Both the position numbers and the translations under genes were made by a program. A stretch of DNA of 64,000 nucleotides, from positions 37,810 through 101,809 of the forward strand of contig NZ_JBJMQP010000096.1 in assembly GCF_045802625.1 (NCBI RefSeq), in the 5' to 3' direction. Numbering within the stretch: position 1 is the first letter of the stretch; each line of letters opens with the position of its first letter. Under the pieces are notes generated by a model. That model saw only the letters and a program-made list of their open reading frames with translations, was not told where the DNA came from and ran no database searches. Below, one piece after another: positions 8,283-29,967 of the stretch. Source of the DNA: Hyalangium sp. (GTDB lineage Bacteria; Myxococcota; Myxococcia; Myxococcales; Myxococcaceae).

Positions 8283-9197
8283 ATGCCTCGGATGAGCTTC
8301 CGTTACTCCGACGAGGTGCGGCGCGCGCTGGATGCAGAGGCGCCGCTGGTGGCGCTCGAGACGAGCGTGGTGGCCCAGGGCCTGCCGTACCCGGACAACC
8401 TCATTGCCGCCAGGGCCTGCGAGGAGGCCGTCCGCCGCGCGGGCGCCGTGCCGGCTCCCATCGCCGTGGTGGATGGCGAGGTGTGGATCGGGCTCGAAGA
8501 GTCCTCGATGATCCGGCTCGCCGAGAGCAAGGAGCGGCTGATGAAGCTCGGCTCGCGGGATCTGGCCGTGGCGCTGGCGTTGAAGGCCTCGGGTGGCACC
8601 ACCGTGAGCGCCACCTGTGAGCTGGCCGCCGCCGCGGGCATCCGAGTCTTCGCCACCGGCGGCCTGGGCGGCGTGCACCGGAGCGTCAGCGAGCACTGGG
8701 ACATCTCCCAGGACATTGGCGCGCTCGCCCGCTACCCCGTGGCCGTGGTGTGCGCGGGGGCCAAGTCCGTGCTGGATCTGCCCAAGACGATGGAGGCCCT
8801 GGAGACGGCGGGTGTGCCCGTCATTGGCATCGGCACGAACGAGCTGCCGTCCTTCTACAGCCGCAGCTCCGGCCTGCCGCTGGAGCACCGAGTCGATGAC
8901 GCCGCGACGGCGGCTCGCATCGTCCGCGCCCGGAGCGAGCTGGGGCAGGGGGGCCTCGTGTTCACGCTGCCCCCTCCCGAGGAGATGGCGCTGCCTCGTG
9001 AGGAGGTGGAGCTGCACATCGCCGCCGCGCTCGCCGACGCCGAGCGCCAAGGCATTCGAGGCAAGGCCGTGACGCCCTTCCTGCTCGCGGACATGGCGAA
9101 GCGCACAGGGGGCAAGAGCCTCAAGGTCAACCTGGCGCTGCTCACGAACAACGCCCACTTCGCGGGCGAGCTGGCCGTGGCCCTGGCCCGCGGCTGA
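8283..9197 (+). CDS. psuG: Pseudouridine-5'-phosphate glycosidase (PsuG / IndA-like)
   Basis: About 300 aa with typical PsuG/IndA blocks: ALETSVVAQGLPYPDNL, IRVFATGGLGGVHR, YPVAVVCAGAKSVLDLPKTMEALET and GVPVIGIGTNELPSFY. The likely true start is ATG 8292 (MSFRY). Confidence 0.7.
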   Translation: MPRMSFRYSDEVRRALDAEAPLVALETSVVAQGLPYPDNLIAARACEEAVRRAGAVPAPIAVVDGEVWIGLEESSMIRLAESKERLMKLGSRDLAVALALKASGGTTVSATCELAAAAGIRVFATGGLGGVHRSVSEHWDISQDIGALARYPVAVVCAGAKSVLDLPKTMEALETAGVPVIGIGTNELPSFYSRSSGLPLEHRVDDAATAARIVRARSELGQGGLVFTLPPPEEMALPREEVELHIAAALADAERQGIRGKAVTPFLLADMAKRTGGKSLKVNLALLTNNAHFAGELAVALARG

Positions 9198-9223: not shown

Positions 9224-12200
9224 ATGACCGACTTGCTCACCCAGCTGGATTCGGCGTCGCATGCCGAGCGCCTCCAACTCTATGAACGCTCTCAGCAGCG
9301 GCTGACGCATGAGGATGTGGTGCAGGCGCTGTCTTCCAAGCGTCCATGCCGGTTCTGGTTGGTGATTCGCTGGGAGGCGGGGGCTCCAGGCACAGCGCTT
9401 CCAGATCCCCAGGCGGCAATGAGGCGTCTGCGGGAGGGCAGGGCTGGCAAGGCGGACGTCGTAAGCCTCCTCTTGGCGCCCGATGCCTTGCGGGACGAAG
9501 CCCAGGACATTTTCGCTGTCCTCTCGGGGATGCGTGCCGTGGCGGTGTCTCACCGTGCGCCACGCCTCGCGGGGTGGCTGGTGAGGGCTGCTGCGATTGC
9601 CAGCATCGCGTTCGGTCGGCCTGAGGAGGGCTGGGCCGTCCTTGATACCGTGGGGACCGAGGGCTACGAGCCGGGCCTCATCCGAGTGGCTCGGATGTAC
9701 GTAGATCCGCTGCGTGCCGATCCCGAGCTGGCGCGCTCAGGGTGGGTTCGCCGCGCGGCTAGCATCATCTGGGCCCAGCTGGAGATGCCTGCCCTTCGCA
9801 CACTGCCCGTCCCGTTCGGATTGCCCATGACCGAGGCAGGCGAGATCGAGAACCCACGCCCTTTGATCGAGCGGTTGGATCAGTTGGGAGCTGTGCTCAT
9901 CAGCAAAGCGCTCTCCAACCTTGTCGTGGCGATCCTCAAGCATGCCCGGGTTGAAGAGGAGACACCGTTCGTGGAGCCAGCGGGAGTAACGACCTGGAAG
10001 CTGCTGTGCGATCGCGTGTTGGACATCACCCGGCGCGTGGGGGGGCACCGCAGCGCAACGCCCGCGGCGATCGAGATGGCGCTCTCCGGTGAGTCTGCGC
10101 CTGTGCTCAGCCGCGACCTCCTCGTGATGGTGGCAGCCCGCATCAGCGAGCTGGATCTGTTGTCACGATGGGTGGCGTGCGCCTTGGTGCTCCGGTGGAT
10201 CGAGGGCTCGGAGTTCGAGGTGCCTTGGTGGGGGATCTTCGCCTACGCAGCCGTACGGACCCTCTATGACCTGGGCCGTGTGGAGTTCTTCCCGGTCCGC
10301 CTGCGTCTCCTCGATGCGTTGATCGACAAGAATCTCCCCGCCATCTCCCGGGTGGACTTGCTCCTCTGGCGCGCCAACACGCGCGTGATGCTCGCGGGCA
10401 GTGATGCGGCCCAGCACGAACTCGGGCTTCAGGATCTCAGGGAGGCTGAAGCGCTGAGCCAGAGGAATGGAAATGTGGAGGAGGAAGTCCGGGCGGCGTG
10501 CGCACGGGCCCATGCCGAGGCGCTCGGCGTCCACGGGGCGGCGGATCAGAAGAACTGGCTGCTCGAACAGGCCGCGAACCGTTTGACCTCGCTTCTTGCT
10601 CGCGTGCCAGGCGAGAGGACGGCGCTCCCCCTGTATGAGGTGCTCGCGGAGATCGAGTCCCAGCGCGCCGAGCACGGGACCGCGAGCGCGGGAGACCGGG
10701 CTCTCCGCTACGCACGGCAGGCTGCGGTCGCGGGAGATTCCAACCCTCGCCACGCCACTAGCAACAAGGCCAGACTTGCGGAGCTCCTGCTCCTGTATGG
10801 GAAGGAGGAGGACAGAGCCGAGGCCATACGGCTGGCTCGGCAGGCCCTCCAGGAGCTTCCTGCCGACGCAGGGGAGATGCATGCCTCCATGCCCCATGCC
10901 GTGCTGGGCACGGCTCTCTTCAAGAGCGGAGCAGTGGCAGATGCTATCGGGCATCTCGAGCAAGCCTTGTCGTTGCAAATACGCCAGGCGGTGGCCCCGG
11001 CGCGCATCCTGACGCGGATCTCCCTCGGCAGGGCGTACCTTGCTCAGAACCAGCGAGCTGACGCTCGCCATCAGCTCGAGCGGGCCGAGGAGGAGGCCCG
11101 TGCCGTGGACGATCACGCCGGGCTCTACGATGCGGTCCAGCTGATCTCTGGCCTCGATCGGGAGGAAGGCAACGATGATATGGCGGACATCCGGCTTCAG
11201 GATGCGGAGCGGATCGTCGCGGGCACGTTTCGGCAGCCCCTCCTGGCGCTGGAGAGGCTCCGCCCTCGCCATTATGGCGCAGCGCTATCCGAGGAACTCC
11301 TCGCGCTGATGCGACGCTACCTCGAAGGCAAGCTGCCCAGAAGCGCCGAGGCGGATGAGATGCTTGCGCAGATCGTCGCCAACCATGCGGATGAGTTCCC
11401 GGCGGATCTCCAGGGCCGCTTCCTGATGGATGACGCGCGGGTCAGCGGGGATCCGGTCATCCGCGCGAAGCTCCTCGACTCCAAGGGACACACGGAGGAA
11501 GCCCTGTCCCTGCTACGCCAGGTCCTGGCCGAGGGCGGCGATCCGCGGGTTCAGTTGAACGCGGCAGCCACCCTCATCGTGCTTCTTCCCGAGGAAGCTC
11601 ATGAAGAACGCCTCCAGGCGTGTGAGCTGGTGGAGGACCTCATCGGAGATAGCGAGGAGTATGCGGCCGCTCGCAATGATCTCGCCGAGGGGTTGAGGTT
11701 GTGCGCCAGGAATGATCAGGGGTTGCTCGCGCGGGCCCGGCGCCACGCGGACATGGCGGCGAAGCAGTTCCAGCATGATGCCAAGGCCCTTGAGATCAAT
11801 ACTCGCGTGCGAGCGAACATCCGCGCCGACCAGCTTGCGCGCAGTGCCATGCAGTCGACGTCGGCGGTGATCGAGCTGGCGGAGTGGCTCGAAAGGGGGC
11901 TGAAGCTTCCCGCCAAGGAACTCGCCGCCCGTCGTGAGCACGCCGCGATGATCTTGCTGCACCCAGGTCCGCTGGCTCATCCCCAGGCCTTGGAGGTGGC
12001 GGGCCGGCTGCTCGATCGTGTTCCCGAGAGCGAGGAAGCCCGGAGGCTCAAGCAGAGACTCCAGTGGATCCAGTCCAAGCTCCAAGAGCAGGCGACGGAT
12101 CAGGTTCCTCCAGAAGGGGAGTCTCCTCAGGCCCCTTCGGTTCAGGGACCGTTCGATGAGGCTCCCGCCTGGGCCCTTGCGCTGCTCCAGGGGCGCGGTT

Positions 12201-15200
12201 CGAAGCTCGACCGCGCATTCAGCGCGGAGGACCACGAGACGATCTTCCAGGTGCTCACCGCGCGGCCCGACCGCGCGGACGCGTTGCTCGAGTGGGTCCT
12301 CGAGCAGGACGCCCTGGGAGATTCTGAAGGGCAGGATCTCATCGCCAATATCGCGGCAATGGCGCCCCGCGGGAGGATGACGCCGGATCTGCTCCAGACC
12401 GTGGAGGAGATCACGACTCGCAAGGGCTCTTTTCCCATGCTCCGACTGCGGGTGCTCTTGCACAGCCAGTCGCTCAACTGGGGGGATGGGACTCCCTACG
12501 CTCGCTCCGCGGATGAGCTGATCGCGGTCGCTCGGACCCCCGAGGAGCGCGTCGAGGCGCGCTTCTTGAAGGGCATCGAGCGCATGAATGCCCTGCAGCG
12601 CCACAGGCGCCCCGACGAAAAGCGGCAAGAGCTGGCGGAGTCGGCCCGCCGTTACCTCCGTGAGGCGCTCGATGAGGCCCGCGGGCTCCAGCTTCCAGAG
12701 GGGAGACTGTTCTCCCTGCTGGTCTCCGCGGGCAACTCCTTCCGTATAGGGCGGGCGCCCGACCTGGAGCAGGCCCTGGCGCTGTACCGGGAGGCGGAAG
12801 CGCTTGGCGCTCCCAACAAGCAAGGGGCCGCGAAGCTCTGGAAGGTACAGGCGAACGCACTGCTGGCGCGCAAGGCCCCGGGGGACGCCAAACGAGCACT
12901 GATACTCCTGGAGCAGTCCCTCGAGGTCCGGCGCGGAGGTTACCTGCGAGTCGAGACGCTGGTGGCGGCCGCCGAGGCCGAGATGGCGCAGCTGGACCGG
13001 GACGAACAGGTTCGCTTGAGCCGGGCGCTCTCGCGGATTGACGAGGCCGTCATCCATGCGGAAGCCCCTCACCGGCATGACTTGGTCAAAGCCCAGATCT
13101 ATTACCTGGGGCGGCTCGTCCACCTGTCGCCGCACGACGAGGCCGCGCAGCGGCGGCTGGAGGCGCTTCACTCGCAATTCCCGGAGCTGGCCAAGGCGAT
13201 TGATCGCGCGAAGCATGGGTGGACGGGCCCGGTTCCTCCTGACATGGTCGAGCTCATCAGCGAACTGGCCTTGCATCCCGCCATTACGGCTCTTGTCGAG
13301 GCCAAGCGTTCTCTGCTCCCGAGGAGGCTGTCCATGGGGCAGGAGGGAGCCGAGGCGGCCTTGGACGATGACTTCCCCGCCGACCTTGGGGAAGACAGCG
13401 AGCAACACCAATCCGTCCTCTCGCCACAGGATCTCCGGGCCCACGTAGACCAGCTCGTCAGCGCCGCAGGGCCAGAGGCACTTCCTGGCGCGGCGGTCGG
13501 GCGGGCGTCTGTCCTCGCTCAACTTACGGAGCAGGGCGTTGTCAGCGCCGAGGAAGTTCGGCGTTTGGCGGAGGAGGCGGAGCAGCACGTTCGGCGCATG
13601 CCGGATTCGGTGGCCCGGTGTTACCTGCTCCTGGAAGTGGCCCGGCTGTGGGCACCTGAGAGCCACTTCAACCACCCGGTGCGGGATTTCCGGCGCGCTG
13701 CCGCGCTCGCCCGGGAGGTGCTGGAGGCCTGCCCTCCGGGAAGTGCGCTCGCCCGCGATGCGTTGCACTCCCTGGCGCGTGCGACGCGATATCGCAAGGA
13801 CGGCGATACCCGCACGCATCGGCGTGAGGCCGAGCGCCTCTATGAACAAGCCGCGCGAGAGTACGAGTCAGTCGGCATGAAGGATGTCGCGGCCCGTGTT
13901 CGGGTGCACCTCTCGGAGTTGAGGCAGGAACTCCACCCAGGAGGCACGGAGTCGCCCTTGCGAGAAGGGCTCTCCGCCGCACGCGAGGCCCTCGCCGCGA
14001 CCGGCTCCGGCGCGCGAAGGGTCGACGCACAGGCCACACTGGCTTATTTCCTGACCTCGCTGGGCGCGGACCTGCAAACACCCGAGGGGAATGCCATGCT
14101 GGCCGAGGCCAAGAGCCTCTACGAGCACTTGGACTGGACGCAGCTCGTCTCTGGGGCGCGGGCCTCCGCCGAGAACTTCCAGACCATCTGTTTCGCGGAG
14201 CTGGCGCGCCGCGCGGGCAGACGGGGCGTGGCGATCGAGATCTGGCGCAAGCGTCTGGCTCAGGTGGACCGGGCTTCTCGTCCGGACGAGTGGGGATACA
14301 CGGTCCATAACCTGGCGGACATGCTGCTGCGTGCGCCCACCGCGGCACAGCTCGAGGAGGGGTTGGACCTCGCCGAGAAGGCGCTTCAGGTCCGAACCCT
14401 GGAACACAACGCTCGGCATCATTGGGAGACGTGCTGGCTCATCGGCAGGACGGTGGTGGGACTCCTGGAGCAGTGGATCGATGACAGGCCCTGGCCTTTC
14501 TCCTTCTCACCCCAGACGCTGTGGAAGAGGGGCCTAACGGCTCTTCAGGGCGCGGGCCAGGCCGCACGGAGACTGGATGGTGGCGACCGGCTGAGGCAGG
14601 TGGCCGTTCAGCTCTTTGGGCTCGCCATGTCCTCTTCCTCTCGCGAGGAGTACGAGCAGACAGCGGAGTTGGCCTGGAAGGATCTCGACGAGGCCCGGCC
14701 CTACATGCTCCTCGACGAGGAGGCAGGTGCGGAGGAGGCGCGGTGGGGAGCGGACATCACGGCCGGCCTTGCCAGCGAACTCTCCGAAGAGGGCATCGTG
14801 GGAGTCTCGGACGGACGGCTCGCGTTCCTGCTCTCGGGCGAGAAGGCGGAGCGCGTGCTGAAGTGGATGGCCCGGACCCTCGGCGCCGCGCAGCGGCGGC
14901 TCGCGGGCCGGACGGCTCAGCCGGACACCGTGTCACGCGAGACCTGGGTGGAGTGGCTCTCGGTGATCCAAGCGGGTGATGCCCGGGACATTGCCCGCGT
15001 GTTGGACCGGATTCGTCAGTCCGAGAACTCATTCCTTCGAGGAGAGCCGGATCTGACGCAGACCTGGAACTGGCTCCAGACACGTCCCGGCTCCGTGGCC
15101 GTGGCTGTTCTGGAGACGCCGATGGGCTTGCTCGCCGCCATTCTCGAGCACAGTGGGCGACGTACGGTGCACATCGCTGCCCTCGAAGTCGAGGCGCCTC

Positions 15201-16141
15201 CGCTCGATGAACCGAGTGTTGCCGCCGGACTGGACGCGAGCGGTGGGAGCGCTGCGTATGGTGCCCTGCTGAGCTGGGCGAAGGAGTGCGTGACCCTTCC
15301 GCTGCAGCGGCAGTTCTCTCAGCCGCCCACGCAGATTCTCTGGGTGCCCACGGGAGTCTTAAGGATGCTGGCTCCCGCGGACGTGTGGCCTTCGTCACCC
15401 GTCACGTGCGCGGTGAGGCTCGATCTGGAGACTCGCGCGCATCCCGCGCGTCCCAGGCGGACGCTCGTGGCAGTGGCGGATCCCGGGCTTGGCTGCGACG
15501 AGGCCCAGGAAATTCCGGATGCCATCCCCGCAGGTGTACGGCTGGCCCGTCTCGCGGAACAGGTCGGCCCGGTGCGTGTACGGATGAGCCAAGGCCGGGC
15601 TTTCGGCGAGTCGCTGGAAGGCGAGTGTCCTGGGTTGGAGCGCGGTCCCGCCTCTCCTGACGATGTCTTGCGCGAGCTGCCGGAGGTGGATGTCGCCCTC
15701 TTCCTATGCCACGGCGAAGTGTCCAGCCCACACGAGGCCCGGCTGCTGCTGCTCGACGAGTCAGGGAAGATCGCCGCGTTGGACATGGAGCGGATGGCCC
15801 AGGATCCGCGGCGCCTGGCGGGGATGCTGGTCGTCCTGCTCTCCTGCCAGACCGGACGCGTGGGTGACTGGCTCCACCGCGCAGCGGGACTCTCCGGGGC
15901 GCTGCTTGCATGCGGAGCCAGGAGTGTGGTGGCTCCCCTGTGGCCTGTTCGGACCGGGCCTGCGGTGGCGGTGGGAGAGGCCGTCCTGAGCGCGCTCTCC
16001 ACCCACGCTGATCTCTCCGTCGCCCTTCACCAGCTGCGCGCACCGGAGCGTGGCTCGGTCCTGGGTGGTCCCATGGGAGCTGCTCAGCGCGAGTTCGAGC
16101 AGTCGTGGTCCCTCAAGGCATTCGTTCACTGGACGGCATGA
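9224..16141 (+). CDS. Giant (2305 aa) TPR-like repeat protein with a C-terminal CHAT (caspase-like) protease domain
   Basis: A single uninterrupted ORF. It has long alpha-helical Leu/Ala/Arg-rich repeat regions. The C-terminus carries CHAT signatures VALFLCHGEVSSPHEARLLLLDE (His) and LVVLLSCQTGRVGDW...VVAPLWPV (Cys), at roughly nt 15300..16100. Confidence 0.65.
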   Translation: MTDLLTQLDSASHAERLQLYERSQQRLTHEDVVQALSSKRPCRFWLVIRWEAGAPGTALPDPQAAMRRLREGRAGKADVVSLLLAPDALRDEAQDIFAVLSGMRAVAVSHRAPRLAGWLVRAAAIASIAFGRPEEGWAVLDTVGTEGYEPGLIRVARMYVDPLRADPELARSGWVRRAASIIWAQLEMPALRTLPVPFGLPMTEAGEIENPRPLIERLDQLGAVLISKALSNLVVAILKHARVEEETPFVEPAGVTTWKLLCDRVLDITRRVGGHRSATPAAIEMALSGESAPVLSRDLLVMVAARISELDLLSRWVACALVLRWIEGSEFEVPWWGIFAYAAVRTLYDLGRVEFFPVRLRLLDALIDKNLPAISRVDLLLWRANTRVMLAGSDAAQHELGLQDLREAEALSQRNGNVEEEVRAACARAHAEALGVHGAADQKNWLLEQAANRLTSLLARVPGERTALPLYEVLAEIESQRAEHGTASAGDRALRYARQAAVAGDSNPRHATSNKARLAELLLLYGKEEDRAEAIRLARQALQELPADAGEMHASMPHAVLGTALFKSGAVADAIGHLEQALSLQIRQAVAPARILTRISLGRAYLAQNQRADARHQLERAEEEARAVDDHAGLYDAVQLISGLDREEGNDDMADIRLQDAERIVAGTFRQPLLALERLRPRHYGAALSEELLALMRRYLEGKLPRSAEADEMLAQIVANHADEFPADLQGRFLMDDARVSGDPVIRAKLLDSKGHTEEALSLLRQVLAEGGDPRVQLNAAATLIVLLPEEAHEERLQACELVEDLIGDSEEYAAARNDLAEGLRLCARNDQGLLARARRHADMAAKQFQHDAKALEINTRVRANIRADQLARSAMQSTSAVIELAEWLERGLKLPAKELAARREHAAMILLHPGPLAHPQALEVAGRLLDRVPESEEARRLKQRLQWIQSKLQEQATDQVPPEGESPQAPSVQGPFDEAPAWALALLQGRGSKLDRAFSAEDHETIFQVLTARPDRADALLEWVLEQDALGDSEGQDLIANIAAMAPRGRMTPDLLQTVEEITTRKGSFPMLRLRVLLHSQSLNWGDGTPYARSADELIAVARTPEERVEARFLKGIERMNALQRHRRPDEKRQELAESARRYLREALDEARGLQLPEGRLFSLLVSAGNSFRIGRAPDLEQALALYREAEALGAPNKQGAAKLWKVQANALLARKAPGDAKRALILLEQSLEVRRGGYLRVETLVAAAEAEMAQLDRDEQVRLSRALSRIDEAVIHAEAPHRHDLVKAQIYYLGRLVHLSPHDEAAQRRLEALHSQFPELAKAIDRAKHGWTGPVPPDMVELISELALHPAITALVEAKRSLLPRRLSMGQEGAEAALDDDFPADLGEDSEQHQSVLSPQDLRAHVDQLVSAAGPEALPGAAVGRASVLAQLTEQGVVSAEEVRRLAEEAEQHVRRMPDSVARCYLLLEVARLWAPESHFNHPVRDFRRAAALAREVLEACPPGSALARDALHSLARATRYRKDGDTRTHRREAERLYEQAAREYESVGMKDVAARVRVHLSELRQELHPGGTESPLREGLSAAREALAATGSGARRVDAQATLAYFLTSLGADLQTPEGNAMLAEAKSLYEHLDWTQLVSGARASAENFQTICFAELARRAGRRGVAIEIWRKRLAQVDRASRPDEWGYTVHNLADMLLRAPTAAQLEEGLDLAEKALQVRTLEHNARHHWETCWLIGRTVVGLLEQWIDDRPWPFSFSPQTLWKRGLTALQGAGQAARRLDGGDRLRQVAVQLFGLAMSSSSREEYEQTAELAWKDLDEARPYMLLDEEAGAEEARWGADITAGLASELSEEGIVGVSDGRLAFLLSGEKAERVLKWMARTLGAAQRRLAGRTAQPDTVSRETWVEWLSVIQAGDARDIARVLDRIRQSENSFLRGEPDLTQTWNWLQTRPGSVAVAVLETPMGLLAAILEHSGRRTVHIAALEVEAPPLDEPSVAAGLDASGGSAAYGALLSWAKECVTLPLQRQFSQPPTQILWVPTGVLRMLAPADVWPSSPVTCAVRLDLETRAHPARPRRTLVAVADPGLGCDEAQEIPDAIPAGVRLARLAEQVGPVRVRMSQGRAFGESLEGECPGLERGPASPDDVLRELPEVDVALFLCHGEVSSPHEARLLLLDESGKIAALDMERMAQDPRRLAGMLVVLLSCQTGRVGDWLHRAAGLSGALLACGARSVVAPLWPVRTGPAVAVGEAVLSALSTHADLSVALHQLRAPERGSVLGGPMGAAQREFEQSWSLKAFVHWTA

Positions 16142-17597
16142 GCCATCGCCCCTGGATCCACGCTTCAGGGAGCTGGGAGGTCTCCTCCAGCAGCCGTTCC
16201 AGCTCCTTCGTTGTCGGCAGGGAAGGTGCCGCGATGGCGATGACGAGCGTGTCATCATCCGCGCCGTGGAGGCGCCACTCCTCGAGTCGCCAACGATCCG
16301 CGCTCCGAGTGTAACCGGCATCCCGGAGCAGTTCCTCGCCCATGTGGTGCTTCGCATCGACGACGAACAATCGGAGCTGCCAGTCAGGACGGCAGTGGCC
16401 TTCGACCTGGGCCTCGAACTCGCGCTCCGCCCTTCCATGGAGGACCCCGACAGGTTGCAGCGTCGCGTTCGTGATGAGCTCCCCCAGCGCCTTCGCCCCT
16501 TCCTGGCCCGCGCGGGAGATCCGCTCCTCGATTCCAGCCAACGCCGCTGTGAGCCATCTCTGGGCTGCGGCCAGGGGACCCAGGGCTGACGACAGTCCGG
16601 CGAGGAGCGCATTCCAGAGAGCCTGTCCGGCCTGTCCGGACACGGGGAGGCGTGCGTGAGCCAGAGGGGCGAAGCTGACCAGCGTCCTGGAACTGGGGGA
16701 GAGAATGGTTTGCAATCGCTCCTGGATGCGCGCGATCTCGGCGCCGAGGCCAAGCACCTCGTTGACCACCAGGAGATCCTCGACAGCCAGCAGCCGATCC
16801 CGTGCCTCGTCCACATCGTGGGCCGAGAGGGAGGCTCGGAGCCCATCCAGGATCTCATCCGTTCGAAGGCGGCCTTGGAGCAGGCGTGTGATCTCAGACT
16901 CGTCGCGTGCCAGGAGGGCCTCCGCTGCCAAGAGGGGAGCCGCGAGTTCAGGCTCCTTCGCGGCGAGGGGCCGTGCATGCCCGATGGCTCGGACCAGCCT
17001 CCACGCTTCGAAGGTGCGCTGCGGTGGCTGCCGGCTGGCCTCGGTGAGTTCGCGAAGCACCCCTCGCTTCCAGCTGGAACTCATGGAGGTCATGTCCTTT
17101 TCCCAGCGGTGATGCGCTTCCTGGTAGTAGTCGTCGTCATCGACACCGGCGCTGTCATGGATGGGAAGATCCGGGCGGAAGGCCGTGCGGACCATGCAGG
17201 GCGCTGCCCTCTTCACGGCAACGAGAACACCCCTGGGGGTGCAGCACAGGAGGCTCTCGGGCTTGGCGCCCCAGAGCGTCTTGGGGCTGCCAAGCTCGCG
17301 GAGGTAGGCCGGGCCGTAATACTGGTCATGGTGTTTTTTCAGCAGCGCATAGCAAGGCTTGGGAACGTGGGGCAGGGAGTCTCTCGACTCGCCCCAGGCC
17401 GGTGTCGGTGGAGGATCCGGGCAGCCCTTCTCCTTCGCGGCAAGGAAGAGGGGGCGGATCTCGACGCGTGCCAACTCATCCCAGTGTTCGATGGGGTTGT
17501 AGAGGTGCTGCCATACGTGGGTGGCCTGCTTGTTGTCCCGGATCGGGTACACGTTCCCCCATTGGGGATGAAACACGGGGCGCAGGGACTCGGTCAT
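16113..17597 (-). CDS. Hypothetical protein (494 aa), convergent with the CHAT gene and overlapping its 3' end by 29 bp
   Basis: Long ORF on the opposite strand of an otherwise intergenic region. The N-terminal roughly 180 aa are Cys/His/Trp-rich and globular, followed by a helical middle and a distinct C-terminal domain. I recognise no known family. Confidence 0.5.
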   Translation of the reverse strand: MTESLRPVFHPQWGNVYPIRDNKQATHVWQHLYNPIEHWDELARVEIRPLFLAAKEKGCPDPPPTPAWGESRDSLPHVPKPCYALLKKHHDQYYGPAYLRELGSPKTLWGAKPESLLCCTPRGVLVAVKRAAPCMVRTAFRPDLPIHDSAGVDDDDYYQEAHHRWEKDMTSMSSSWKRGVLRELTEASRQPPQRTFEAWRLVRAIGHARPLAAKEPELAAPLLAAEALLARDESEITRLLQGRLRTDEILDGLRASLSAHDVDEARDRLLAVEDLLVVNEVLGLGAEIARIQERLQTILSPSSRTLVSFAPLAHARLPVSGQAGQALWNALLAGLSSALGPLAAAQRWLTAALAGIEERISRAGQEGAKALGELITNATLQPVGVLHGRAEREFEAQVEGHCRPDWQLRLFVVDAKHHMGEELLRDAGYTRSADRWRLEEWRLHGADDDTLVIAIAAPSLPTTKELERLLEETSQLPEAWIQGRWLMPSSERMP

Positions 17598-21334: not shown

Positions 21335-23080
<1,746 letters not shown>

Positions 23081-23202
23081 TGGGGCCGGAGTATAGGCAA
23101 CCCGGGCGTGAGGCCCAACGGGGATGCGCTGAGCGCAGGGGAAGCAGGCAGGCAACCAAACCGTTCCCGAAGGCGCTCAGGGCTGTTACATCCCCCGCCG
23201 CC

Positions 23203-25173: not shown

Positions 25174-25296
25174 GTTTCCCTTCCTCGGGCGTAAGGCACA
25201 GATGGGATCACCCCCTGTGCTACCCTGGCGCAAGCCAGGTGCCTCACTGGCTCTGAAGGAGGGAGGGCTTGCGCAAGCAGCGCCCGCTCATTGCCC

Positions 25297-28200
25297 ATGT
25301 CAAATCCGGACAAAGACAATCAGCCCCTCGCTTCGACTCTGACCCTCACGCCAGGGAATCCTGCTTCCCCCGGGCCGAACCGTGAGGGTGAGAAAGGCGG
25401 CCAGGCCGTCGCCGGTGTGGAGCGTGTCCCCGCCTCGCCTGAAAGCCCGAGCTTCCCGGTCACCGACTGGGAGCGCTACGAGTTCCTGGAGGTGTTGGGC
25501 CACGGCGGGATGGGAGAGGTCTACAAGGCGCGTGATAGGCGCTTGGGGCGCATCGTTGCGCTCAAGTTCATCCGTGGAGCGGATCCGGATCTGGTCATGC
25601 GCTTTCTTCAGGAGGCTCGCGCGCAGTCCCGCATCGATCACCCGAATGTCTGCAAGGTGTACGAAGCAGGAGAGGTGGCCGGGAAAGCCTACATCGCCAT
25701 GCAACTGGTGGCAGGCCAGCAACTGGATCGGGCCGCCGCCAAGATGTCACTGCCCGAGAAGGTGGGGGTGATGAAGCAGGTGGCCGCAGCAGTGCATGAG
25801 GCGCACCGGCTGGGCGTCATCCACCGGGATCTCAAGCCCAGCAACATTATGGTGGAGCGAGGAGAGGATGGACGCTGCATCCCCGTGATCATGGATTTCG
25901 GGCTGGCCTACGAAGTCAGCCAGGGACATGGGCTGACAGTGACCGGAGCGTTGCTGGGGACGCCGTCGTACATGGCCCCAGAGCAAGCGCGGGGGGACAC
26001 GCGGAACATCGATCGTCGCACGGATGTGTATGGGCTTGGGGCGACATTCTATGAACTGCTGGTGGGAGTGGCTCCGTTCACTGGAGCCACGCTCATGGAC
26101 ACGCTGGCGAAGGTACTCGACGAGGAGCCACCCCCGCTGCGTGTGCGCGAGCCTCAACTCGCCAAGGACTTGCAGACCATCGTTCTCAAGTGTCTGAGCA
26201 AGGAACCGAACCAGCGTTATGCGTCCGCTCGGGAGCTGGCCGAGGATCTGGATCGCTATATCGACGGCGAGCCGATTCTGGGGCAGCGGCAAAGCTTGGT
26301 GTACAGATGGAAGAAGCAAGCGCAAAGGCACCGAGCACTCGTGGGTGTCTCGGGCGGGGCCTTGGTCATCATCCTGCTCCTCGCGGCGTTCGGGCTCCGC
26401 GCCTGGGTGGAGGGGAGACGCACACAGGAGCGAGCGCGGCTGGCCGAGCAGCTGGGGCAGCAGGTCAAGGAGATGGAGCTGTTCCTGCGGACCGCGTACG
26501 GCCTGCCACTGCACGACACCAGTCGGGAGCAGCAGTGGGTGCGAGAGCGGATGGCGCGGATCGCCTCCCAACAGCAGCAACTGGGCGACGAGGACGGAGG
26601 GCTGGCACACTATGCACTGGGGCGCGGCTACCTTGCATTGCATGAGCCCGACAAGGCACTCGAGGAATTGACGCGAGCGATGGACATGGGAGTGGACTCG
26701 CGGGAGTTGCACTACGCTAGGGGACGCGCGCTCGGCGAGTTGTATGAACGGGCCGAGCAGGCGCTACGTGCCCAGACGGCGGCCACCGAGATAAAGCAGC
26801 AGCGTGAGCTTGAGCAAAAGTACCTCGAACCCGCCATCCAGTCGCTCGAGCGCAGTCGAGGATTGGAACTGGAGTCATCCCATTATCTTGAAGGCCTCAT
26901 TGCCTTCTTGCGGCATGACTACAAGAACGCGGCACAGGCTGCGGAACAGGCCGCGGTCGAGGCTCCGTGGATGTATGAGGCTTTGACACTCGCAGGCGAT
27001 GTGGCCTTCAACCAACGGAGGACGCAAGTCGTTCGTCCTGGCCTCGATGGGGCGAGTACCGCCTTGCTCAAGGCAGTGGGCCTGTACGAGCAAGCGGCAG
27101 ATATTGCGCGGAGTGATCCACGCAACTACGAGGCACTTGCGGAAGTATGGCTTCTTCAGTCTCAGATAGACCGTAATCAGTCACGATCAGAATGGCCATC
27201 GTTGGTGCGAGCCCTCGCAGCGAACGACAAAGCTCTTCAGGCGTCGCCTCTGCGAGCATCAGCGTACAATGAACGAGCCCGCATCTTGAGGAGTTGGAAT
27301 CAGGAAGTGAACTCCCGGTCGAGCCTGATTCAGGCCGCGGCCATCTCCGCCGCTTCTCGTGCCGTGGAGTTAGATCCGGCAAGTGCGGAGGCCTACTACG
27401 TAGTGGCTTCTTTGTTGGAGGGGCGTGCCAGTCAATTAGCCGACGAAGGCAAGGATCCGGACGTTGTCTGGGATGAGGCGGTCACCTCGCTCAATCGGGC
27501 CATCGAACTACAGCCCAGCAATATGGGCACGATCGGCCAGTTCGCACGACTCTATTTGGCGCGAGGCGATTATTTACTGGAGCGAGGCCAAGACCCCAGT
27601 GATGCGTATGCGGAGGCTGAGCGTTTCTTCAATAGAGTGATTCGTGGCGACTCGTTGGTGTGGAATCTCGGCACTGTGGCCAATTTCCTGATGGATCTTC
27701 ACGCTGGCTTGGCTGAATACCGCCTGTCGATCGGACTCAATCCCGAGGATGAAGTCCAGAAAGTGCTCGAAGTGGGGCAGCGAGCCCCCGCCAGGGCTGT
27801 GAGGCGGGATAGAATGGCCCGTGCCGAGCTGACACGAGCCCAGTATCTCATCAACAATGGTGGTGACCCGCAGCCCTCATTCGAGCGGGCTCGGGGCTAC
27901 TTCGAGGACGAGGAGCGGATTCGTGAGGACGCGGCGCGCTCCCTCGGTCGTAAACCGGATTGTATCGGCTGCGAGCTCATGGGCGCGCGGCTGGATCTGG
28001 AGGAAGCCCTCTGGGTTCGGCAACGAGGGCAGGTGGCCTTACCGCTTCTCATGGACGCGCTCGCTAAAGCCCGACGCGCAGTGGAGCAGGGGCACAGCAG
28101 CATGAGCCACTTGGAACTGGCGCGGGTCTATTGGCGCCTCGCGGAGGCGCAGCCAGTGGGAGAGGCGCCGACGGCTATCACAGAAGGGTTTGCGCAGGTG

Positions 28201-28440
28201 GAACTGGTGCTTCAGCGAAATCCGTCTCTGGCGCACGCTTACGCCATCCGTGGAGGGCTTTTTCTCGTAAAGGCACGAGCCGCCCGCAAACCAGCGGAGC
28301 GCCTCGATGCGGTTCACCAAGCACAGGCTGCGATGGCACAGGCCTTCAATCTCAATCCGCTGTTGAAGCGGGAGTACGCTGCGGTCGCGCACGAAGTGGA
28401 GTCAATGCTCTTGCCGTCAGAGGCGCGGATTTCGCCATAG
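25297..28440 (+). CDS. Ser/Thr protein kinase with a TM segment and a long C-terminal TPR/Sel1-like repeat region
   Basis: Kinase motifs GHGGMGEVYKA, HRDLKPSNIMV, DFGLA and TPSYMAPE. The TM helix is ALVGVSGGALVIILLLAAFGL. Roughly 650 aa of helical repeats follow. The track lists a TTG at 25291; ATG 25297 (MSNPDKD) is the likelier start. Confidence 0.75.
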   Translation: MSNPDKDNQPLASTLTLTPGNPASPGPNREGEKGGQAVAGVERVPASPESPSFPVTDWERYEFLEVLGHGGMGEVYKARDRRLGRIVALKFIRGADPDLVMRFLQEARAQSRIDHPNVCKVYEAGEVAGKAYIAMQLVAGQQLDRAAAKMSLPEKVGVMKQVAAAVHEAHRLGVIHRDLKPSNIMVERGEDGRCIPVIMDFGLAYEVSQGHGLTVTGALLGTPSYMAPEQARGDTRNIDRRTDVYGLGATFYELLVGVAPFTGATLMDTLAKVLDEEPPPLRVREPQLAKDLQTIVLKCLSKEPNQRYASARELAEDLDRYIDGEPILGQRQSLVYRWKKQAQRHRALVGVSGGALVIILLLAAFGLRAWVEGRRTQERARLAEQLGQQVKEMELFLRTAYGLPLHDTSREQQWVRERMARIASQQQQLGDEDGGLAHYALGRGYLALHEPDKALEELTRAMDMGVDSRELHYARGRALGELYERAEQALRAQTAATEIKQQRELEQKYLEPAIQSLERSRGLELESSHYLEGLIAFLRHDYKNAAQAAEQAAVEAPWMYEALTLAGDVAFNQRRTQVVRPGLDGASTALLKAVGLYEQAADIARSDPRNYEALAEVWLLQSQIDRNQSRSEWPSLVRALAANDKALQASPLRASAYNERARILRSWNQEVNSRSSLIQAAAISAASRAVELDPASAEAYYVVASLLEGRASQLADEGKDPDVVWDEAVTSLNRAIELQPSNMGTIGQFARLYLARGDYLLERGQDPSDAYAEAERFFNRVIRGDSLVWNLGTVANFLMDLHAGLAEYRLSIGLNPEDEVQKVLEVGQRAPARAVRRDRMARAELTRAQYLINNGGDPQPSFERARGYFEDEERIREDAARSLGRKPDCIGCELMGARLDLEEALWVRQRGQVALPLLMDALAKARRAVEQGHSSMSHLELARVYWRLAEAQPVGEAPTAITEGFAQVELVLQRNPSLAHAYAIRGGLFLVKARAARKPAERLDAVHQAQAAMAQAFNLNPLLKREYAAVAHEVESMLLPSEARISP

Positions 28441-28462: not shown

Positions 28463-29797
28463 TCAGTCCTGCCGGAGCTCCAACCGGGGCGCGTTCGCGT
28501 GATCCGGGGGCTTCTGCTTGTTGCCCAGGCGCCAGGCCACGAGTCCTCCTCCCGCCATGATCATCCCCACGGCGGCGAGCGCCCACAGCAGCCCGGTTCG
28601 CTGGTGCGGCTGGAAGAGGGCTCGTGCTGACAGGGTTGGCGCCTCATCCGAGGGCCGGCTCGGCTTCGCGGGCGGAGGCTGGACGAGCCGGAGCCTTGGC
28701 GGCGTCTCCACCTTCGTGATGGCAAGCCCCGGCCGAATCGGTACTGAGGAGCGCGGAGGAGGCGGCGGCGGCGGTGAGAAGCGCGGCGGCGGTGAGAAGC
28801 GCGGCGGCACGGCAGCGATGCGCGGCGGCGGAGGAGGCTCGGTGCGAGGTGAGTGGCTCGGTGGAGCCGGGGCCTCCGTGGGCGCGCTGTCGATCATCTT
28901 CGACACGAACTGCGCGATCCGGTGCACGCCCACCTTCTTCCCCGTGGAGAGGATGAAGTCCTCCAGATCCGACTGGAACGCCCGGCAGTCCGGGTAGCGC
29001 TGCTCGCGATCCTTGGCGAGCGCACGATCGAGGATCTTCGATACCGCCTTGGGCAGATCCGGCCGGCGCTCCACCGCGGGCACGGGTGGCTCGTAGAGGA
29101 TCGCCTGGGCCATGCTGGCTTCGGTGGTCGCGTTGAACGGCTTGCGGCCGGTGAGCAGCTCGTAGAAGACGATCCCCAGCGCGTACACGTCCACGCGCCG
29201 ATCCAACTCCTTGTTGCGGATCTGCTCGGGCGCCATGTACGAGAGCTTGCCCTTGATGACTCCGGTCAACGTGCGGTGGCTCTGGTTGGCCGCCTTGGCG
29301 ATGCCGAAGTCCACGATCTTCACCGCGCCCTGCCGGGACAGCAGGATGTTGTCGAGGCTCACGTCCCGGTGGATCAGCCCCAGGTGCTGTCCCGTGTCCG
29401 GATCCTGAAGCTCGTGAGCGAAGGCCAGCCCCTCGCAGGCCGTCGCGATCAGCCGGGAGCAGAGCACCGGGGACAGCGCCATCTCGAGCGCGTTCACCCG
29501 CTTCAAGAGCGCGCGCAGGTTGAGGCCGTTGATGTACTCCATGGCCAGGTAGTACGTGCCGTGGGCCTGCCCGAAGTCGAAGATCTGGACGATGTGAGGG
29601 TGCGTGAGCCGCGCGGCCAGCTTGGCCTCGGTGAAGAACATCTCCACGAAGGCCTCATCCCCCGCCAGGTGCGGCAGGATGCGCTTGACCACGACTTCTT
29701 TCTCGAAGTCCATGGGGCCCGCGACCTTGGCCAGCCAGACCTCGGCCATTCCCCCGATCGCGAGCTTGCGGATGAGCCGGTATTTGCCGATCTGCAT
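28463..29797 (-). CDS. Ser/Thr protein kinase with a Pro-rich tail and a C-terminal TM segment
   Basis: Kinase motifs [32 protein letters not shown] and [26 protein letters not shown] repeat. The TM helix is [20 protein letters not shown]. The likely start is the internal ATG (MQIGKYRL) near 29797; the track ORF extends to 29929. Confidence 0.7.
28755..28812. repeat. Perfect tandem duplication of about 18 bp (gcggcggtgagaagcgcg x2) inside the kinase gene 28463..29797
   Basis: Seen directly in the sequence. On the minus strand it encodes the repeated PPRFSP units in the Pro-rich tail. Confidence 0.5.
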
Positions 29798-29967
29798 CCC
29801 GGCAAGCTCGATCCGGGAGGCAAAGTCCGCGACCCCACCCGCGCGAGGATCCGCGCGCACTGTCCGTGCGAGCACAGGCCGACTGCCCGGGGGCTGACGG
29901 ATCCCTCGAAGGGCCGAGGGCAGTGCCAACCCTCAAGAAACGAGAGTCGCTTCGCCAGGCAGGGCGC

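Follow-up and report, generated by a model that had tools for sequence, protein, structure and literature searches.

Proteases that control sigma factors are emerging as a recurrent route from a danger signal to a transcriptional programme. In the type III-E Craspase, a system based on clustered regularly interspaced short palindromic repeats (CRISPR), the TPR-CHAT protease Csx29 cleaves Csx30, an inhibitor of the extracytoplasmic function (ECF)-like sigma factor CASP-sigma (PMC10028731). In Myxococcus xanthus, the TPR-CHAT anti-sigma factor DdvA is paired with the ECF sigma factor DdvS, and together they control a defence island (PMC11506125). A third published analogue, CalpL/CalpT/CalpS, contains a signalling protease of type III CRISPR systems (10.1101/2024.05.08.593097). 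Here we describe a 64,000-nucleotide stretch of DNA from Hyalangium sp. (contig NZ_JBJMQP010000096.1, positions 37,810–101,809), hereafter referred to as the window, that encodes a 2305-amino-acid TPR-CHAT protein (the giant; window positions 9224–16141, plus strand) and, tail-to-tail with it, a 494-amino-acid protein of no known family (the partner; 16113–17597, minus strand). Relatives of this pair are linked to a sigma factor, and the two genes therefore probably form an as yet undescribed type of signalling or defence switch that is triggered by a protease. We found no description in the searchable literature of a module that combines the giant, its partner, a sigma factor, and a radical S-adenosylmethionine (radical-SAM) protein.

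The giant is a member of the already known CHAT-domain proteins, and NCBI names it as such; the module adds to the theme of protease, anti-sigma factor, and sigma factor. Within that theme, the giant family would represent a free-standing version with the largest scaffold so far, a partner for which no related fold could be detected, and a defined candidate promoter.

Domain structure of the giant

The 6.9-kb open reading frame (ORF) of the giant begins with ATG and continues uninterrupted from 9224 to 16141. Its G+C fractions at the three codon positions (0.75, 0.48, and 0.79) follow a coding pattern in a window whose overall G+C content is 68%. An exhaustive phmmer search with amino acids 1106–2305 retrieved 213 family representatives at an expectation value (E) below 1e-3 and 95 at E < 1e-30. 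The giant is collinear with approximately 95 representatives, to which it is 28–58% identical; many representatives are 2000–2475 amino acids in length and collinear across the whole query. The NCBI gene call for the giant is shorter, comprising 2104 amino acids that begin at M202 (P0001, corresponding to amino acids 202–2305) and omitting the 201 residues encoded by positions 9224–9826. When the full giant was compared with the family representatives by BLASTP, its first 200 to 250 amino acids matched the very beginnings of about 35 distant members. These residues make up a family-specific domain (amino acids 1–250; 9224–9973, plus strand) that aligns from Met1 with 20 distant members at 24–34% identity. 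The alignment of 21 sequences is in register from Met1, and W45, R49, P55, G56, L59, and P60 are invariant. Because distant members align from Met1, the ATG at 9224 is the true start of the giant and the public call is truncated, losing part of a conserved domain. The closest myxobacterial homologues start at approximately residue 260 of the window's giant and lack the N-terminal domain. Comparison of a profile of amino acids 1–250 with the PDB revealed no significant relative; a match to HDDC2 was weak (E of 0.003) and was judged spurious, and kinship of this domain with the partner was rejected (hhalign probability 0.2).

The N-terminal domain is followed by an α-helical, TPR-like solenoid of approximately 1600 amino acids (251–1864; 9974–14815, plus strand) and by a caspase-fold CHAT protease region (approximately 1865–2305; 14816–16138, plus strand). 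The solenoid is built of helical hairpins that resemble TPR structures, and the CHAT region adopts a caspase/hemoglobinase fold. By sequence profile, the TPR match in the giant fell below threshold (TPR_12, 23 bits against the Pfam cut-off of 30.1). The Pfam CHAT model (PF12770) matched amino acids 2126–2271, the core of the region, with 52.2 bits against a gathering threshold of 24, which covers profile positions 122–262 of 289. Among 20 full-length family members, Pfam detected CHAT in 13, TPR_12 in seven (E < 0.01), and nothing else. The TPR-CHAT chains of Csx29 were the sole matches when PDB sequences were searched with the giant. In this alignment, LFLCHGE of the giant falls on the catalytic His block of Csx29 and LLSCQTG on the Cys block, which places the predicted dyad at His2163 (codon CAC, 15710–15712, plus strand) and Cys2208 (codon TGC, 15845–15847, plus strand). 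Of 85 family representatives, 82 retain both residues. With this predicted dyad intact, the CHAT domain is likely to be catalytically competent. Neither the giant nor the partner contains a convincing transmembrane segment or Walker A motif, and the 19-residue stretch of highest hydropathy in the giant (1.79) lies inside the β-region of the CHAT domain. The giant is most likely a soluble, cytoplasmic TPR-CHAT cysteine protease of the separase/Craspase type, and it matches separase in size. A first-pass annotation, made from the letters of the window and a list of its ORFs, had started the giant at ATG 9224, where the public annotation does not, and had described an uninterrupted 6.9-kb ORF encoding 2305 amino acids, a long helical-repeat scaffold, and a C-terminal CHAT domain with His and Cys blocks; all of this held up in our analysis.

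Comparison of the giant with known structures gave the highest scores for Csx29 (26.4 for 7y83_D and 24.4 for 7y9x_B), followed by separase (22.5, 21.0, and 20.1 for 5u1t_A, 7nj0_A, and 5fc2_B), gingipain (4ief_B, 18.3), SAVED-CHAT (8tl0, 16.5), the M. xanthus anti-sigma factor DdvA (8rot_B, 16.0), and various TPR proteins (12–17). The architecture of this bacterial protein is as close to that of eukaryotic separase as is the architecture of Csx29, and the giant may provide a tractable model for the gating of a caspase-like active site by a helical scaffold.

The giant nonetheless differs from each of the proteases described so far. It is three times longer than Csx29, has an N-terminal domain of its own, and scored 13 bits against a cut-off of 300 with the Csx29 model NF041237. 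In contrast to the type III-E Craspase (Csx29-Csx30-CASP-sigma/RpoE), the window contains no Cas7-11; no repeat array was found in window positions 1–40000, and no cas genes were found among the scanned neighbours. Separase (peptidase C50) is eukaryotic and resembles the giant in fold only, with no Pfam Peptidase_C50 match in the giant. DdvA is a single-pass membrane protein in which a cytoplasmic zinc anti-sigma (ZAS) domain is joined to a periplasmic TPR-CHAT region and for which self-cleavage has been proposed. Unlike DdvA, the giant has neither a transmembrane segment nor a ZAS motif, is separate from its putative sigma regulator, and carries an N-terminal domain of an unrelated family. 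CalpL is a Lon protease; the giant, unlike SAVED-CHAT proteins, lacks a SAVED or other cyclic-oligonucleotide sensor domain. Against PADLOC models, the giant gave a weak, 21-bit match to BovA in the CHAT region.

Loci for comparison, designated L001 to L020, were gathered through look-ups of partner homologues, a scan of one genome per species, a metagenome scan that contributed seven loci, and look-ups of distant giants. The one-genome-per-species scan covered 185,579 species and yielded five loci, all of them in Myxococcales-type records; the giant family is apparently restricted to high-GC, myxobacteria-like genomes. In Archangium gephyra (L002 and L008; 11487–18665, minus strand), three overlapping ORFs of 1859, 457, and 302 amino acids take the place of the giant, owing either to frameshifts in a pseudogene or to an error in the assembly; the adjacent partner is intact. 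A 375-amino-acid gene upstream of the giant in L001 was considered as a split-off N-terminus and rejected.

The convergent partner gene

The partner and the giant overlap by 29 bp at their 3′ ends (16113–16141, both strands), where the giant terminates in KAFVHWTA and the partner in SSERMP. The partner consists of an N-terminal α/β domain that contains the motifs VWQHxY, HHDxYYGPAY, and TAFRP, a helical middle region, and a C-terminal β-sandwich. An AF2 model based on an alignment of close homologues reached a predicted local distance difference test (pLDDT) score of 79. The linker between the helical body and the β-sandwich (amino acids 364–392) is poorly conserved and has a pLDDT below 50. 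We found 22 homologues of the partner in Myxococcota (Cystobacter, Archangium, Myxococcus, Pyxidicoccus, and Corallococcus) that are 42–55% identical to it, with more distant ones at 25–30% identity; the same 22 proteins were recovered when the search was repeated with an alignment that included the distant members. The partner matched nothing in Pfam, NCBIfam, PADLOC, or PDB sequences, a fold search gave no significant match, and viral contigs and plasmids yielded no homologue. Three Corallococcus homologues (P0017, P0019, and P0022) retain the N-terminal two thirds of the protein and have a replaced C-terminal region that lacks the LSPSSGRxP tail.

Wherever sufficient flanking sequence was available, each partner homologue was found tail-to-tail with a giant (the window, L001–L007, L009–L013, L015, L017, and L020). 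The 29-bp overlap recurs in loci of the window's clade (L001–L008, L011, and L012); elsewhere, the genes overlap by 34 bp (L009, L015, and L017) or 17 bp (L010 and L013), or are separated by 6 bp (L020). In an all-against-all comparison of ORFs, the giant and the partner were the only genes common to all 15 compared loci, and their pairwise identities rise and fall together (r = 0.94 over 12 loci). Look-ups that were seeded with the giant found the partner in three of five loci (L009, L010, and L020). The association is thus obligate from the partner's side and looser from the giant's side, and the two genes are co-inherited and co-diverging. As the convergent gene encodes the conserved partner of the putative protease, the 29-bp overlap marks a co-inherited two-gene module. 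The first-pass annotation had reported the convergent gene and its 29-bp overlap correctly, as it had the ORF, the CHAT domain, the scaffold, and the flanking genes; it did not see that the convergent gene is a co-inherited partner, that the upstream gene psuG is incidental, or that relatives of the pair are linked to sigma and radical-SAM genes. These relationships give context to about 20 "hypothetical proteins".

Since the overlap makes the 3′ ends of the two mRNAs complementary, mutual antisense or transcriptional interference between the genes is possible. The region around the overlap gave no match to an Rfam family, and neither a terminator-like nor a sigma-70-like site was detected there.

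Sigma factors, a candidate promoter, and the proposed mechanism

Orthologous loci revealed two further genes associated with the pair, both of them confined to deeper branches apart from a radical-SAM copy near L003. In L009, L010, L013, L015, L016, L017, and L020, a gene encoding 225–240 amino acids lies directly upstream of the partner, whose start it overlaps by 4 bp. The encoded proteins match sigma-70/ECF models alone (TIGR02937, best E of 1.5e-12), sigma families were matched by all six members that were scanned, and a search of the PDB returned SigH and SigJ at E of approximately 1e-3. The gene likely encodes a divergent ECF-type sigma factor and heads an operon in which the partner is second. 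The standard layout of sigma/anti-sigma pairs is a sigma factor gene to which the next gene is translationally coupled. In L015 (approximately 370–504), L016 (approximately 362–496), and L017 (approximately 2700–2795), an excisionase-type helix-turn-helix gene (IRELAALLKIGEKTAYTMAQ...) terminates shortly before the sigma-like gene, which suggests a position at the border of an integrative element for these copies.

The second gene encodes a B12-binding radical-SAM protein. It is divergent from the giant in L009 (7879–9821, minus strand), L010 (5302–6552), and L017 (12529–13266) and precedes the giant on the same strand in L020 (576–1825); the copy near the giant in L003 (20004–21458) is 53% identical. 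The protein of L009 corresponds to the PADLOC candidate PDC-M51A (482 bits), and a neighbouring 200-amino-acid kinase-like protein corresponds to PDC-M51B (194 bits). Both genes of PDC-M51, a candidate system composed of a radical-SAM and a kinase-like protein, thus occur in L009, and homologues of the radical-SAM gene stand beside the giant in L010, L017, and L020 and near it in L003. The window has no PDC-M51 genes, and the partner is not represented among the PADLOC models. These arrangements link PDC-M51 to a putative regulator composed of the CHAT protein, the partner, and the sigma factor.

The sequence TGTCCGCAT-N14-CGTC fronts the giant, the radical-SAM gene, or both in four of these loci. 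It forms an inverted pair that faces both genes in L009 (9871–9897, minus strand; 9943–9969, plus strand), L010 (6596–6622, minus; 6646–6672, plus), and L017 (12395–12421, minus; 12467–12493, plus) and stands as a single copy approximately 35 nucleotides before the radical-SAM start in L020 (516–542, plus). All of these sites are confined to loci that encode the ECF-like sigma factor, and the 20 loci contain just one further copy of the 9-mer of the motif. In its spacing and its CGTC element, the motif resembles an ECF-type promoter, and it may be the cognate promoter of the sigma factor.

Analogy with the published systems, gene order, and the promoter motif together make a signal-gated CHAT protease that targets the partner the best-supported model. 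The N-terminal domain and the helical scaffold would present the C-terminal caspase-fold domain and keep the protease inactive until a signal, possibly an infection-related one, is sensed; the active CHAT domain would then cleave the partner. In the ancestral module, the partner would be co-translated with the ECF-type sigma factor and would probably restrain it, and the freed sigma factor would activate the TGTCCGCAT-N14-CGTC promoters before the giant and the radical-SAM gene. The output of the window's two-gene form might be a sigma factor encoded elsewhere, or the cleaved partner might itself be the effector. Overall, we consider it plausible, at somewhat less than an even chance, that the genes constitute a CRISPR-independent protease/sigma-regulator module comparable to Csx29-Csx30-CASP-sigma or DdvA-DdvS. 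It is tempting to speculate further that the giant senses an invader or stress by means of its scaffold of about 1800 amino acids and cleaves the partner as a novel sigma regulator, that the ECF-like sigma factor then induces the PDC-M51 radical-SAM defence along with the protease gene, that the Hyalangium locus is a derived form in which the sigma gene is missing and the cleaved partner acts as effector, and that the overlap adds antisense feedback; as a complete account, this chain is possible but rather unlikely.

Several observations weigh against a protease/sigma-regulator module. Convergent orientation is unusual among functional partners. Two of the five loci found with the giant as seed have no partner, namely L018, which encodes a short form of 1341 amino acids, and L019. 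Neither in sequence nor in fold does the partner resemble Csx30 or any known anti-sigma domain. The window contains no sigma-70 family gene, no radical-SAM gene, and no occurrence of the TGTCCGCAT motif above chance; sigma-like gene, radical-SAM gene, and motif are likewise absent within 10 kb in loci of the window's clade, with the exception of the radical-SAM gene near L003. The neighbours of the pair in the window are housekeeping genes.

Other explanations place the partner in a different role. Securin binds separase and keeps it inactive, and the partner could similarly be a dedicated inhibitor or chaperone of the giant, whose true substrates would be other cellular or invader proteins and whose cleavage of them would lead to growth arrest or death. 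Securin is disordered, whereas the partner is modeled as a folded protein of three domains, and no cohesin-type substrates are present here. Inhibition of this kind also leaves unexplained the operon in which the sigma factor and the partner are coupled by 4 bp, as well as the promoter motif shared by the deeper branches, and we consider it unlikely.

Bacterial gasdermins are released by neighbouring caspase-like proteases. By the same logic, the partner could be an effector that becomes active when the CHAT protease removes an inhibitory part, in which case the output would be abortive infection and no sigma factor would be required. The self-sufficient two-gene module of the window's clade fits such a role, and the linker at amino acids 364–392 of the partner could be the cleavage site. 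Defence genes identified by PADLOC also adjoin the module in three loci: Lamassu LmuA/LmuC/LmuB next to the partner in L003 (6333–9954, plus strand), DrmD of DISARM in L009 (2619–5924, minus strand), and JetC/JetD-like Wadjet genes in L004 (4480–9929, plus strand). The partner, however, has no membrane segment, no Pfam or PADLOC match, and no likeness to gasdermins or to known toxin or nuclease folds, which leaves no gasdermin beside the protease, and the sigma linkage in older branches favours a transcriptional output; an effector of this type is therefore doubtful.

A housekeeping or developmental function, in which the giant would serve myxobacterial cell biology as HetF does in cyanobacteria, with the adjacent gene as an accessory factor, draws on the position of the window pair between psuG and GDT1, GAF, and ATP-grasp genes, away from mobile or defence genes, and on the seeming confinement of the family to myxobacteria-like genomes, but is very improbable in light of the patchy distribution across the species scan, the flanks that differ at every locus and often contain insertion sequence (IS) elements, integrases, or defence systems, the base composition of the pair described below, and the copy in A. 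gephyra that is broken by apparent frameshifts.

Genomic neighbourhoods of the pair

In the window, the giant is preceded by psuG (8283–9197, plus strand), which encodes a pseudouridine-5′-phosphate glycosidase (Indigoidine_A, 372.7 bits), as the first-pass annotation had recognized. None of the other compared loci has psuG beside the module, and the flanks vary from each locus to the next; psuG is therefore an incidental neighbour that lies outside the module. Additional neighbours encode a substrate-binding protein, ATP-grasp enzymes, a GDT1 transporter, a GAF protein, an ABC-F ATPase, and three Ser/Thr kinases. The window therefore appears to hold a minimal two-gene form of the module inserted among housekeeping genes. 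The G+C content at third codon positions (GC3) is 0.79 in the giant and 0.78 in the partner compared to approximately 0.9 in flanking housekeeping genes, which fits acquisition. Several of the other loci are flanked by integrases, IS elements, and excisionase-type helix-turn-helix genes. The first-pass suggestion that the giant is an effector of a conflict system is plausible by association with the defence genes that adjoin the module in other loci, and finds no counterpart among the housekeeping neighbours of the window.

The three Ser/Thr kinase genes are located within 13 kb downstream of the pair (21335–23155, minus strand; 25291–28440, plus strand; 28463–29929, minus strand). Their PADLOC matches to PD-T4-6 were rejected as a sign of a defence island, since these are generic matches to the kinase domain. 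One of the kinases, a protein of 1049 amino acids with TPR repeats, has a GC3 of 0.71 and lies in a dip in G+C content (0.61 at 26–28 kb). Upstream of psuG, a 943-amino-acid ORF (3157–5988, plus strand) has weak matches to a Cache domain (amino acids 294–419) and to a major facilitator superfamily transporter (amino acids 575–910), and is either a fusion of an uncommon type or an ORF that was called too long.

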